Source: Octopus vulgaris (Eukaryota). From it: 64,000 bases of DNA. The position numbers were made by a program, and so were the translations under genes. This document shows positions 10,905 to 55,147 of the stretch, piece after piece. The stretch lies in assembly GCA_951406725.2 (NCBI GenBank), contig OX597817.1, forward strand, positions 143,344,001 through 143,408,000, read 5' to 3'. Within the stretch, counting starts at the first letter, position 1. Each line of letters starts with the position of its first letter. The notes under the pieces were generated by a model. It was not told the DNA's origin, made no database searches, and worked only from the letters and a program-made list of their open reading frames with translations.

Positions 10905-11618
10905 TCTGGCAGAATCGTTAGCACGCCGGACAAAATGCTTTGCGGCATTTCGTCAGTTCTGAGTTCAAATTCCGTCGAGGTCGACTTTGCCTTTCATCCT
11001 TTCAGGGTCGATAAATTAAGTACCAGTTACACACTGGGGTCGATGTAATCGACTTAATCCGTTTGTCTATCCTTGTTTGTGCACTCTGTGTTTAGCCCCT
11101 TCTGGGTAGTAAAGAAATAGGTATTTCGTCTGCCGCTACGTTCTGAGTTCAAATTCCGCCGAGGTCGACTTTGCCTCTCATCCTTTCGTGGTCGATAAAT
11201 TAAGTACCAGTTACGCACTGGGGTCGATGCAATCGACTTAATCCGTTTGTCTATCCTTGTTTGTCCACTCTGTGTTTAGCCTCTTCTGGGTAGTAAAGAA
11301 ATAGGTATTTCGTCTGCCGCTACGTTCTGAGTTCAAATTCCACCGAGGTCGACTTTGCCTCTCATCCTTTCGTGGTCGATAAATTAAGTACCAGTTGCGT
11401 ACTGGGGTCGATGTAATCGACTTAATCCGTTTGTCTGTCCTTGTCTGTCCACTCTGTGTTTAGTCCCTTGTGAGCAGTAAAGAAATAGGTATTTCGTCTG
11501 TCTTTACGTTCTGAGTTCAAATTCCGCCGAGGTCGATAAATTAAGTACCAGTGGCGTACTTAATCGACTGGCCCCCTCCCCAAAAATTTCAAGCCTTGTG
11601 CCAAGTGTAGAAAAGAGT
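10905..11618 (+). mobile_element. Head-to-tail array of four SINE A units
   Basis: ~185 bp unit; junctions aaagaaata|ggtatttcg near 11119, 11303 and 11487. Confidence 0.9.
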
Positions 11619-12584
11619 ACACCTGTTTTTTTGTTTTGTTTTTTTGTTTTGTTTTTTTGCTTTCGTTTATTTTTTAGTCTTGTGTTTACTTCAATAACAT
11701 TTCTGATTCTAGTTTCCACCACGAAAATGCAGGATCCACAGCTTAGATGTTACGTTGACGATATTTAGGATATGCGTTCAATTCTCAGTCAAGCTAACTG
11801 TAAATGAGTGACAGCGGTACTCGGAGGTTAGTTCTATGACGGACAGATATCTCGCTCAGGAGTGAGTGTGGTACTTCCATCACTTAAGCGCCTTGAAAAT
11901 CTGGTTAAGGTTCGCCAAAATGTGCCCCTAGGTAAAACAGAGGCAAAAATGACAGTCTACCGTTATTCCTTTATAACTGCTTAGACATAGATGTTGGCAT
12001 AGCTGTGTGGTCAAGAAAAATACAAGCAAAGCTGTGGTCAGCACTGGTACACACGTAGCTGTGTGGTCAAGAAAGATGCAGGTATGGTTCTGCACTCAAG
12101 TGAGTGTATTTAAGACTGTCGATAAACGTGCAGGCCTTGTTGGTTGGGCTTGCTGTGTGGGGTCAACAGAGTCATAGGCGTGGCTGTGCGGTCAAGAAGT
12201 TTCCTTCACATCTCCGTTGTTTCTCGTTTAATCTCACTGCGACGCTGCTGTGGCACATGTATTTTAGTTGTAACCCCGAACTGCCAAAACCTTGCGAGTG
12301 TTAACCGGTCGAAGAAAACTGTAGTAACTCCGCAGATCGATCATTCACAGAATGTTTGCTCGGTTTAACACCACTGTTTGGTCCTTTGTTCGTCTTCAGC
12401 AGAGGTTTCGGGCGTGCTCTAAGGTTTTCCTTTCTTCCTTACACTCACGGAGGCCTCGAAAAGCTCGTGCATGTTTTTTCTTCTATCTTTTCACAGCCAT
12501 AAAACATCTTTTTTTTTACTTCTTAACTTATATAATATATCCGCTTCACTGCTTAAATATTTACACTTTACTGCTTATATTTTA

Positions 12585-12930
12585 CAGCCGCAGTTGTTTG
12601 GTTAAGTAGTTTGCTTCCTAACCACATGGTTGCGGGTTCAGTCCCACTGCGTGGCACCTTGGGCAAGTGTCTTCTGCTACAGCGTTGGTCCGACCAAATT
12701 CTTGGGAATGGATTTGACAGACAGAAACTGGAAGGAGATGGCCGCCATGTGTGTACGTCTTGGTGCATGAGCCTGCACACCAACTTAGCGTTTCGGCGAA
12801 ACTGACCGATTGAATAAGTACCAGGCTTTAAAAACATAAGTACTTGGGTCGAATCGTTCGGCTAAAATTCCTCAAGGCGGTACCTCAGTATAGTCGCAGT
12901 CTAATGACTAGAACAAGTAAAAAGATAAAC
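12585..12930 (+). mobile_element. SINE family B
   Basis: Matches 7405-7797. Confidence 0.8.
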
Positions 12931-13097
12931 GATGAATGAATTCATCACACAAAGCCATCAACGTTCTATAATCCGCAAAGAGATTGATTTGGGGAAAAAA
13001 GGCGTTAGAAAAGGTTTAAGGCACCCAGCAGATTTCAGTGTCTCAGTTATGGATCGCGACATCAATGTTGCAGACTCCTGCGTTTAATCAACAACAG

Positions 13098-13170
13098 CCA
13101 TATGGCGTAATGGTTAAGAGCACAGGCTACTAATCCTAAGATTCCGAGTTCGATTCCAGGCAGTGACCTG
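13098..13170 (+). mobile_element. tRNA-Arg-like Pol III head followed by (AAT)n
   Basis: A-box tggcgtaatgg, B-box gagttcgattcc; resembles tRNA-Arg(ACG); second copy at ~50540-50612 on the minus strand. Confidence 0.65.
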
Positions 13171-13280
13171 AATAATAATAATAATAATAATGATAATAAT
13201 AATAATAATAATAATAATAATAATAATAATAATAATCATAATCATAATAATAATAATAATAATAATAATAATAATAATAA

Positions 13281-52074: not shown

Positions 52075-52633
52075 CAACCCAAAGAACCTTTTGTCAAACA
52101 AGGAAGGGTGGTTTGAATAAAATGCCATATTGTGTGTTTACTGGAATTTCAAAGTGGAGTGTTGCACTTTGAGTTTGTCCCAGATGATCATACTGTAAAA
52201 GCTAACCTTTGATGCTTTGAAAATCCATTACTTGGCATTATTCAATCAAAGGCATACACTGCTACAGCATGACAATGCCCCAGCACACCCTGACAATGGG
52301 ACCAAGCACAAACTTCAGGTTCTTGAAGGGCTAAAAGTGCTACCTCACCCTATCCAGACATTGCACCATTAAATTACCATCTTTTCTGAGCAATGGCTAC
52401 TTTCCTGCACAGACAGAGGTTCGACAACTTGAGTGAGGTTGAAAAGGGAGCAAGGGGTTTTATTGTCTCTAAACCAGCCATCTGGTATTAGCATGGACCT
52501 GAGATTCTGACACAATGATGGCGACTGACAACAGAATATGGTGGCATATATTTTGATGAATAAATGCTTTATGAATGTAATTTGTTTAACAATTAATGCT
52601 TGAAGTATAAAAATCTTTTGACTCAACCTGGTA
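52075..52633 (+). mobile_element. Decayed mariner-type transposon, 3' half
   Basis: LLQHDNAPAH..KVLPHP/PDIAPLNYHLF; terminus cttttgactcaacctgg-TA. Confidence 0.75.
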
Positions 52634-54088
52634 AATATTGGAGGAAGACAAAAATTCACTCCAACAGCAACCAGTGAGAATACCAAATAAATTTCGGCTG
52701 TTTTGAGCCTTTTCAGTGACACATACTCACATCTGGTCACATGTTGAGATGAGAATTTTCTGTGTCCAATATAAGAAACAATTAATAAAACATTCACTGA
52801 TGTTGCAAATAGCTGCCCAGCTGAATAAATAAACAGTATATGTAAGTGAGCCATTATTAAATTACTTCAGTTGTGTATACAGGATTAAATCATTGCTGAA
52901 TTTAGAATCGAAAATAATGACTATTATTGAATCATGGAGAGAAATCATCATCACCACCACCATCATCATAAGAGTAATGGCCTATCAATGGCAGCGGAGT
53001 GCCAGGTTACATGATTAGTGATACTTTAAGTACATGCTTTTAAATTGAGTTCAAGTCCTACCAGGGCAGATTCACTCACTTAATTGACCAGATTATCGGA
53101 TGATGTTATACCCCACTGGCTATGATGCACTTTGCATCATTTTAGCTTTCAAATTATGCCTCCCCAGTGTCTAGGCAAACAGGTCAATGTCATTCCCTGA
53201 CCTGTTCAGAAGGCTTGGCCATCACAAGGTGTACCCATTTACAGCTGAGTGGACTGGGGCAATGCAAAATAAATTTTTTTTACCCAACAACACAGTGCAC
53301 TGCTCGGCCAAAGAATCAAACCCATGATTGCTGGATCCTGAGTGCAACATTCTAACCACTGGGCCATACACCTTCACAGGGTAGATGAAACAAGTACCAG
53401 TAATATACAGGGATATAAGCTCTCCCTTGTAAATATCCACTTTTACACCAATGTAAGCAATCATCATCATCAGAAGAATTGATTTCGTCACTTTAAAATC
53501 ACCAAACTAGAATTACCTGGCATCCAAATGATATACAGGAATTACACCTCAAGTTTGGACACTTTATATTAATTATTCAGTACCTTGGCATTCTGATTGC
53601 AAACCTTCACACACACGGTTCCCAGAGTTGATGAAATTCTTACAAATGATTGAAGCCAATTCTATAACTGACTCTTCCTAAATAGTGCACACAGTCAAAG
53701 GAAATCAATACCATTATACAGAATTTAACTACTCTCACTAATACACATATATATTTGTTTATTGTAGTATGAAACAAAAATATTAATGATATTTCCTAAC
53801 CTTGGCACAGTGCCACACATTATGAGAGAAATTGTAATTGATTTTACTGACTTGCTATTTCACCGATAATTATTTTAACACCAGAATGATTTGAACTCAA
53901 AACAAACTGGAATATAGTAACTAAATACAACAATGTATCTCTCTTTGTAATGTTTTATGTAATTTTAGATAGGGTGATTCAAAGGTAAGTATATCTAAAT
54001 ATGTAACCAAAACTCAACATAAACTTAATCTAAATTTGAACTTAAAAACAAATTGGGATATAATAACTGAATACATCAATATATCTGT

Positions 54089-54460
54089 AATCTATATATA
54101 TAAAGCTGAAGTTGCCTGTGTATGGCAGGTTTTGTAGCCTTCAACTAACACTATCTCCTCCGAGACCCTGCGGTGCAAGTTCACCAAAATTGAGAGTATG
54201 ATAGAAGAAGGCTTGTTCTTCCTTCCATAGAAGAAAACATTCAAATTGAACCATGTTAACACCAAAAATTATTTACATCAAAAAGGTGCTTTTTTTCTAT
54301 GAAAATCCCTATTTTTTACAATTTTTCGCCTGCTGTGTCGCCATTTTTCGGTGTATTTCAACCAGAAAAATGTTCACTCAAAGAGAATACCAAGCTACAT
54401 AATGCAAAATTTTTACTTTTCAAAAATTCCAATTCTAAAGGGTCAAAACAAACCCGAGCA
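54089..54460 (-). mobile_element. Helentron/DINE-like element
   Basis: Reverse complement of 26895-27270. Confidence 0.7.
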
Positions 54461-54469
54461 ACGGTTGAA

Positions 54470-55147
54470 ATACCACTTAGCATTTCATCCAGCATGCTAA
54501 CAATTCTGCCAGCTTACTACCTTTAATAACAACAACTACAAATTTTGGAGAAGGGATAATCCATTACATTGGCCCCGGTACTCAACTGGTACTTAATTTA
54601 TCAACCCCGAAAAGGATGAAAGGTAAAGTCAACCTCAGCGCAATTTGAGCTCAGAACGTAGTGAAGGGCAAAATACTGCTAAGCATTTCATCCAGTGTGT
54701 TAACAATTCTTATTTCTTTATTGCCCATAAGGGGCTAAACATAGAGGGGACAAACAAGGACAGACAAAGGGATTAAGTCAATTACATCGACCTCAGTGCG
54801 TAACTGGTACTTATTTAATTGACACCAAATGTATGAAAGGCAAAGTCGACCTTGGCGGAATTTGAACTCAGAACAAAATAGCAATAAGCATTTCGCCCCG
54901 AGTGCTAACGTTTCTTATTTCTTTATTGCCCACAAAATGCTAAATATAGATGGGACAAACAAGGACAGACAAAGGGATTAAGTCGATTACATTGACCCTA
55001 GTGTGTAACTGGTACTTATTTAATCAACCCGAAAGGATGAAAGGCAAAGTCGACCTTGGCGGAATTTGAACTCAGAACGTAAAAACAGACGAAATACCAC
55101 TAAGCATTTTGCCCGGCATGCTAACAATTCTGCCAGCTCGCCACCTT
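54470..55147 (-). mobile_element. Array of SINE A copies
   Basis: Tail-2|agaa junctions near 54710 and 54915. Confidence 0.8.

Follow-up and report, generated by a model that had tools for sequence, protein, structure and literature searches.

The tail-2 copies of the window

The stretch of DNA analysed here (hereafter the window) comprises 64,000 nucleotides of the 2.8-Gb genome of Octopus vulgaris (contig OX597817.1; G000:C4:143344001-143408000 in our numbering), and the element in question is family A, a monomer of 233 bases resembling a short interspersed element (SINE), with a tRNA-like head (columns 1 to about 85, numbered from GGCGGCG), a central domain and a tail. Its copies fall into branches that differ in their tails, and the youngest of these, tail-2, often ends at one of two fixed positions in the head of its own family, which we call site 48 (GGTATTTC) and site 15 (AGAAACG). 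The copies of interest in the window are as follows.

10903..11619 (+), four-unit array with one head, three tail-2 units (period 184) and a last unit of the youngest tail-1 type; site-48 junctions at 11119, 11303 and 11487
33393..33432 (+), head remnant of an old tail-1 copy, ending at the cut ...CTTAGC
33433..33642 (+), young tail-2 copy in site 48 of the old copy, with a 3-base 5' overlap (AGC) and no visible duplication
33643..33809 (+), remainder of that old host (tail-1)
33889..34471 (+), array of three units starting with a tail-2-type head (variant G43/C48): two of tail-2, then an older tail-1 unit, then (ATT)n
44751..45027 (+), tail-2 unit truncated at its 5' end, without an upstream head, and fused at site 15 with a tail-1 unit
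46704..46980 (+), tail-2 copy running at site 48 into a brief fragment without a head
48371..48767 (+), tail-2 copy with a tail-1 unit attached at site 15
54540..55138 (-), array of three units at a period of 205, both of its junctions at site 15
2238..2416 (+), solitary young copy, its tail-2 incomplete and giving way to (TA)n

A first-pass annotation, made from the letters of the window alone, had reported that every complete tail-2 is followed by head sequence, and all 11 complete ends in the window do run into a head within one base of the places it gave: site-48 sequence directly follows the ends at 11119, 11303, 11487, 33642, 34121, 34305 and 46927, and AGAAACG or AGAATTG of site 15 follows those at 44855, 48584, 54916 (-) and 54711 (-). 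A search for tail-2 with up to 3 mismatches returned 10 matches in the window and none in 100 shuffles. Since the 11 junctions fall in seven clusters, they do not represent 11 independent events. The window's one case of insertion in place, at 33393-33809, is without a duplication; at the scored columns its insert is 0% and its host 22% diverged. The dimer at 44751..45027 likely jumped as one unit.

Structure, tails and ages of family A

Family A is short, non-coding and abundant, with 85,961 exact matches to the end of tail-2 in the genome, and tail-2 copies carry the marks of retroposition, namely target duplications and 5' truncation, together with a 3' tail shared with long interspersed elements (LINEs). 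The head motifs TGGCAGAA.CG and GTTCAAATTC were picked by eye for their likeness to A- and B-box consensus sequences, and a search of Rfam returned no tRNA match. The family may resemble OK among the octopus OK/OR SINEs (those of Ohshima and Okada, 1994) and may carry something like the 66-base Meta domain.

The two tails of the first-pass annotation become at least four, three tail-1 types of different age and tail-2, with divergences at non-polymorphic columns of about 14% (oldest tail-1), 10-12% (middle tail-1), 6% (youngest tail-1) and 3.3% (tail-2). Its statement that tail-1 copies end in TTA-rich flanks holds for the two older types, whose flanks are ATT-rich, but not for the youngest, which ends in AATAT followed by a target duplication and sometimes joins heads as well (L136, L020, L121). 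At loci L136 (+) 7054-7300, L020 (+), L121 (-) and L398, the youngest tail-1 meets heads at site 15, via the common AGAAT, and near site 48. No LINE partner for the tail-1 types was found in a search for tail-like ends without a SINE body.

Sites 48 and 15 both lie at loop edges of predicted head hairpins, a weak signal (z -1.4). About 30% of tail-2 heads carry a double change of T-G to G-C in columns 43 and 48, as at 33931 and 33936 of the window. It sits at the closing pair of a predicted hairpin and abolishes the GGTAT motif; these G43/C48 heads may be poorer targets. One site-15 hit in a head of this variant was seen at L401.

Downstream flanks of tail-2 across the genome

Taken across the genome, the flanks are clearly non-random, as the first-pass annotation had expected of them, but its "always" does not hold, and many ends lie outside heads. 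Among the 85,961 exact ends, 31,353 (36%) continue as GGTATTT and 4,379 (5%) as AGAAWY; GGTAT followed by a base other than T occurs at 5,450, GGTATT followed by a base other than T at 3,220, and C or T as the first base at 16,207. A separate count of first bases after tail-2 is biased by loci chosen for GGTATTT, and was not used. In an unselected 1 Mb, made up of 100 stretches of 10 kb (20 in three blocks and 80 evenly spaced), 37 of 62 tail-2 ends fall within heads, 31 of them at or close to site 48 and 6 at or close to site 15, and 25 lie outside; under a stricter tail match, 27 of 53 are in heads, with 3-4 more diverged heads among the other 26. The window, in which all complete ends are in heads, is therefore an extreme sample of a real preference. 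Depending on the counting method, 36-60% of flanks fall in one repeat type, while Kojima's criterion for a target-specific SINE, as worded in the excerpts of that paper used here, is more than 20% (PMC4494074).

In the same 1 Mb, 37 of 1,504 GGTAT sites follow a recognisable head (an undercount), and heads carry, by eye, about 25 tail-2 ends as against about 4 at all other GGTAT sites, which corresponds to a roughly 50- to 100-fold enrichment, a figure inflated by arrays.

Tail-2 copies outside heads use the motif more loosely. They are flanked by target duplications, mostly 12-20 bp long and mostly beginning with GGTAT, TATAT or AGAA. Such duplications were detected at 68 of 156 terminal tail-2 ends, and at 40 of 80 tail-2 monomers compared with 2 of 160 shuffled pairs, where detection ran from base 6 onward and some loci had been picked by their flank. 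The upstream copy of the duplication starts with all five motif bases in 19 of 26 GGT, 7 of 11 AGA and 8 of 14 TAT cases; since detection began only at base 6, the motif is part of the target DNA. The choice of motif goes with the variant of tail-2: judged by eye on the first 100 flanks listed of each kind, GGTAT (not T), non-head sites included, goes with T variants in 97 and AGA with C variants in 90, as against 24 C per 100 overall. By their divergence (4.5%, 3.4% and 2.3%), these variants are successive waves. Further, the sixth base continues the head sequence more often than background (3,220/5,450 = 0.59 vs. 303/910 = 0.33).

Insertion in place into older copies

Sequence-specific retroposition of the SINE into its own head, the central proposal of the first-pass annotation, is borne out by nested insertions with locus-private target duplications. 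A strict pattern of partial head plus full head has 107 exact matches in the genome, and 22 of the 29 distinct loci of this kind that were opened run on, by eye, as tail-2 plus the site-48 sequence. Many nested loci have the same private letters on both sides of the inserted young tail-2 unit. Young tail-2 units have inserted in place into older members of their family.

Junctions into the oldest subfamily, of which there are 213 exact matches, allow old and young heads to be told apart (leave-one-out errors of the classifier, 4/81 and 7/59). The scored set consists of the first 30 loci, a by-eye choice of 40 from the remaining 70 listed, which passed over site-15 joins and most of the right arms bearing tail-2-type letters, and loci met elsewhere. 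A segmental duplicate was removed from it, and only elements whose first head is near-full were admitted. Twelve of the resulting 70 young-into-oldest junctions have a head leftover upstream (nine with a private duplication by eye, two blunt, one probably misflagged), and the other 58 carry a single head, of old type in 22 and of young type in 36. About half of the 70 are thus independent insertions rather than hitch-hiking copies. In the 20 old-head arrays scored, columns 48-57 agree between first and last unit at 0.949, compared with 0.903 in shuffled pairs (0/2000), the signature expected of a target duplication, and columns 68-110 have no excess agreement. The signature is absent from the 33 young-head arrays scored and from 34 arrays ending in the youngest tail-1 (p=0.21).

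The ages of the units are consistent with this. The first units of arrays are young, at 3.3-3.5%, whereas the age of a last unit is that of its subfamily (5.5%, 9% and 11%), and left arms are less diverged than right arms (3.1% vs. 5.8%, p=0.0002). The single dimeric master that the first-pass annotation had named as a counter-explanation is contradicted by this inequality in age and by the right arms, none of whose 903 pairs share at least 3 changes. The outer duplications of young-into-oldest arrays are mismatched at 10.1%, close to oldest monomers (12.0%) and above tail-2 monomers (5.1%; p=0.008), and a fixed 9-base window agrees (p=0.006); arrays ending in the youngest tail-1 were not separable from tail-2 monomers by this clock (p=0.28). 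First units truncated at the 5' end past column 50 are depleted in arrays (9/188) relative to lone copies (14/113, p=0.024), which would cap co-transposed multimers at roughly 40% of arrays.

Multimers and local growth of arrays

The notion that arrays are built by repeated insertion stands for the nested cases, but some multimers jumped whole and long arrays are near-identical local duplications. Truncated first units without an upstream head were found in 5 plain cases and 3 with inversions among 10, in addition to L283 and the window copy at 44751; at L087 a dimer lies within one target duplication, and one duplication pair flanks many whole arrays. Whole multimers also transpose as a single unit. 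Long arrays have been amplified locally, for example to 10 units at 0.2%; divergence is 3.8% within arrays vs. 8.8% between them, where the former figure is dominated by long arrays and 20 of the loci were chosen for arrays. In many two-unit arrays, the units differ as much as unrelated copies. Arrays ending in the youngest tail-1 (1,635 exact matches) mostly have tail-2-type heads and no duplication signature.

Two other routes to head-less tandems were set aside: rolling-circle copying of a 184-base circle, as first units carry a head that such a circle lacks, and template jumping, as the junctions are without full heads. Tandems of head plus duplication alone, with a period of 59-69 and up to five copies, occur at L092/L093, G000:C13:69036075 and C14:84691109. 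An inverted 5' part, as in twin priming, is seen in tail-2 copies at L174, L248 and L302. In the window, a 45-base stretch consisting of the old head leftover and its upstream flank is present twice, about 630 bases apart (32760-32804 and 33381-33435).

Candidate partner LINEs

The first-pass annotation had suggested looking for a LINE that ends in tail-2 and inserts at the same sites, with the Tx1 and R4 clades as candidates. An L1/Tx1-type lineage of this kind exists at site 48, and the R4/Dong-like elements of the window are not the partner. The head-targeting LINE was found with a pattern excluding the SINE's own upstream letters, in which a second family made up 4 of the 100 matches listed, and the site-48 sequence comes next in 9 of 9 exact matches to this family. 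The eight loci opened have 3' ends of the second open reading frame (ORF2) that are about 88% alike, followed by head-less right arms of tail-1 or tail-2 type; this likeness gives the lineage about the age of tail-2. A search that, by virtue of its last letter, happened to leave out canonical heads turned up no off-target copy.

A more abundant L1-group LINE, with 9,030 exact ends, has 36 of 42 terminal bases in common with tail-2 and lands, by eye, in (TATC)n at about 23 of 29 local ends, whereas TATTTCRT comes next at no more than 2 of about 9,030. Each of the two lineages is thus target-specific, one at site 48 and its sister in (TATC)n. Compared with the oldest tail-2 variant, the head-targeting LINE matches at 27 of the last 30 bases and the (TATC)n lineage at 23, and over 42 bases they match at 33 and 34, respectively. 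A third lineage, known from one copy, ends exactly like tail-2 and sits at site 15 (AGAAACG), with 71-75% identity to the end of the head-targeting LINE; no repeated LINE family was seen at site 15 among 100 of 265 matches listed, and among the non-SINE ends sought locally at sites 48 and 15, in about 2 Mb, there was no LINE family. Sister LINEs with GGTAT, AGAA and TAT flanks exist.

The best solved relative of the (TATC)n lineage ORF2 is human L1 ORF2p (E=6e-43, compared with 1e-20 for R2), its homologues carry PF03372, PF00078 and PF13966, and the best named homologue of a LINE protein from this genome is from Argonauta. The head-targeting lineage is 42-60% identical to the (TATC)n lineage over the part compared. 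Judged from the sequences of the (TATC)n lineage and its homologues, the partner is predicted to have an L1-group reverse transcriptase, an APE endonuclease and a C-terminal zinc motif. These LINEs probably belong to Tx1, going by motifs together with their target specificity; the searches returned no named Tx1 sequence.

More sister lineages with other microsatellite targets are suggested by L142 (+) 4286 and L351 (+) 344, where L1/Tx1-like or similar 3' ends with a terminus resembling tail-2 run into (TC)n and (ATC)n. At L175 (-) ~6118-6380, a family A head, beginning at column 17, comes after an old L1/Tx1-type ORF2 end that has a different tail. A second SINE family, ending in ...GAAACAAGTAAAAGA, has a parallel system of its own: at L391:5022-9600 (G000:C4 near 76,199,000-76,203,600), two elements with ORF1 only are stacked at a single base of its head, each followed by the same site sequence.

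The remaining features of the window include LINE fragments of both types. The R4/Dong-like elements, a label based on motifs, form two families, one in (AAT)n and the other in (ACAT)n, and have 3' ends unlike tail-2.

1170..2092 (-), decayed ORF2 fragment of L1/Tx1 type, with 47-52% against the reference LINE protein and no visible tail-2-like end
5297..5488 (+), second decayed L1/Tx1-type ORF2 fragment; no tail-2-like end seen
34930..36190 (-), R4/Dong-like LINE 3' fragment in (AAT)n
37152..38200 (+), R4/Dong-like LINE 3' fragment in (ACAT)n
30760-31812 (-), second copy of the (ACAT)n R4/Dong-like LINE 3' fragment
15162-15542 (-), DDE transposase fragment, PF13358

Explanations for the self-targeting

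Taken together, we consider it probable that a young tRNA-headed SINE branch with an L1/Tx1-type tail inserts at two fixed positions in its own head by means of the enzymes of rare LINEs that share these sites; about half of its copies are at these two exact spots, likely because the LINE tail was taken over. Several observations weigh against this. The head-targeting LINE has 9 exact matches, compared with about 31,000 SINE junctions, and its 5' end and endonuclease do not appear in the loci opened; two truncated site-48 LINE copies are without a head leftover upstream. About 40% of tail-2 ends lie outside heads, and the SINE is therefore much laxer in its choice of site than the LINE. A tail-2-type head without the duplication signature is found in 36 of the 58 arrays that entered the oldest subfamily and have a single head, and in 39 of 43 arrays into the youngest tail-1, which fits co-transposition as well as head replacement. 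The duplication clock is significant in two of three scorings (an 11-base window gives p=0.17), and no empty allele at window 33100-34700 appeared in contigs of four public runs, which were swamped by repeat copies; nor did an orthologous empty site come to light.

Instead of an enzyme, the address might be set mainly by RNA-DNA pairing, in which read-through RNA past tail-2 (GGTATTTCG... or AGAAACG...) pairs with the nicked target, and its best partner is the family's own head, resulting in a self-reinforcing loop. The tracking of the motif by the tail variant, also at non-head sites, and the excess at the sixth base argue for it, as does a hit rate that rises with likeness to tail-2 units (3/38, 4/21 and 10/18 from oldest to youngest tail-1), and so does the lack of a repeated site-15 LINE family among the matches listed. 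There are precedents in the excerpted texts of two papers: R2Ol insertion is increased by pairing of read-through sequence (PMC6530143), and L1 priming depends on how the primer pairs (PMC3649969). However, the tail variants are successive waves, such that a change of helper LINE would explain the link equally well, sister LINEs with the respective flanks exist, and the tail-2 RNA folds no better than shuffled sequences. Pairing as the main determinant therefore seems unlikely to us, although it is compatible with LINE enzymes acting at the same sites.

Dimeric or multimeric source genes might also have given rise to the arrays as their copies, with tandem duplication adding length and insertion in place as a rare founder event. 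Such sources would account for the truncated head-less first units, the whole-dimer insertion at L087, the single duplication pair around many arrays and the near-identity of long arrays, and most hybrids carry young heads. Yet an old head is kept in about half of the 70 oldest-subfamily junctions, right arms share no mutations, outer duplications look old and truncated first units are depleted, with the rough ceiling of about 40% of arrays that truncation rates imply; as a general account it is quite improbable. Still less can be said for junctions as by-products of ectopic recombination or conversion among neighbouring copies, without targeted retroposition, to which we give practically no weight. 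Family copies are dense and often adjacent, and a nested insertion could lose its surplus head when its two heads later recombine, but junctions exact to the base at two sites speak against it, as do private target duplications, a LINE that uses the very same base and motifs in the upstream duplication copy at unique sites. Recombination as the main cause is ruled out by the nested insertions, the oldest-subfamily junctions and the site-48 LINE, and is possible only for the loss of the extra head.

For insertion by LINE enzymes, the mechanism that we propose builds on what the loci display, namely tail homology, a LINE at site 48, insertion in place, looser use of the motif elsewhere, co-transposition and local amplification. 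The SINE branch carries the last ~45 bases of an L1/Tx1-type LINE and inserts, with target duplications of 12-20 bp, at the two fixed positions in heads of its own family. ORF2p of the head-targeting LINE might nick the bottom strand at the site, and the nicked strand would prime reverse transcription at the tail-2 end. As the insert is homologous to its target, the cDNA could often pair with the target's own head at second-strand priming, such that no second head is made and the old one is either kept or replaced by the young one; seamless 5' joins via pairing of cDNA with the target have a precedent in R1/R2, according to the excerpts of PMC2718515. The inserted copy would set an intact promoter before a head-less older unit, from which read-through multimer transcripts may jump whole, and unequal exchange or slippage may then lengthen some arrays. 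A tentative and, on balance, rather doubtful extension is a closed loop, in which the SINE provides its carrier LINE with landing sites, its own read-through RNA guides its return, and young promoters overwrite decayed heads, reviving old copies in new multimeric source genes.

With tens of thousands of events, family A represents a natural case of a SINE preferring its own family as a target, and a route to head-less SINE tandems and dimeric SINEs without a single master. How an APE endonuclease or RNA pairing sets specificity could be studied in the sister LINE lineages, which differ in target (head sites 48 and 15, and (TATC)n). Consensus-based annotation would split such arrays into false families and misdate them.

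Comparison with known systems

The closest analog is the crocodilian SINEU-3/Tx1-Mar pair (Kojima, 2015; PMC4494074), in which a SINE and a Tx1-clade LINE share a target preference and land in an abundant repeat. SINEU-3 and its sister SINEs have target preferences of 90%, 23% and 13% and form tandems by sequential insertion, according to the excerpts of that paper. There the target is a Mariner transposon and the tandems consist of full copies with the duplication between them, whereas family A uses its own head, its arrays are head-less inside, and most of its 5' joins are seamless. R1 and R2 in 28S ribosomal DNA likewise use a fixed bottom-strand site, with precise 5' joins by cDNA pairing and insertion aided by read-through 3' pairing (excerpts of PMC2718515 and PMC6530143); unlike family A, which is non-autonomous and homologous to its target over its whole body, they are autonomous and target a host gene. 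Kibi and Koshi are Tx1-clade LINEs that target microsatellites (excerpts of PMC4494074), like the octopus lineage in (TATC)n, but here a sister of the latter has moved to a SINE head.

Dip multimers, sSats (PMC10702118) and bivalve tandems (PMC11481361) resemble family A in having many copies in tandems, with long arrays more uniform. They are full-length tandems or internal duplications, however, and the excerpts of both papers name no fixed internal target or site-sharing LINE. With the octopus OK/OR SINEs and with MetaSINEs (excerpts of PMC4824008), family A shares a tRNA-like head, here with putative A- and B-box-like motifs, a central domain and exchangeable LINE tails. A 2026 annotation of octopus repeats reports active L1-Tx1 families, and its main text is without the words "nested" and "target site" (PMC13282606, as far as excerpted). 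In the openly licensed PMC and bioRxiv literature, we found no description of a SINE targeting its own head. Compared with the target-specific SINEs driven by Tx1 elements, what is new here is that the target is the SINE itself.

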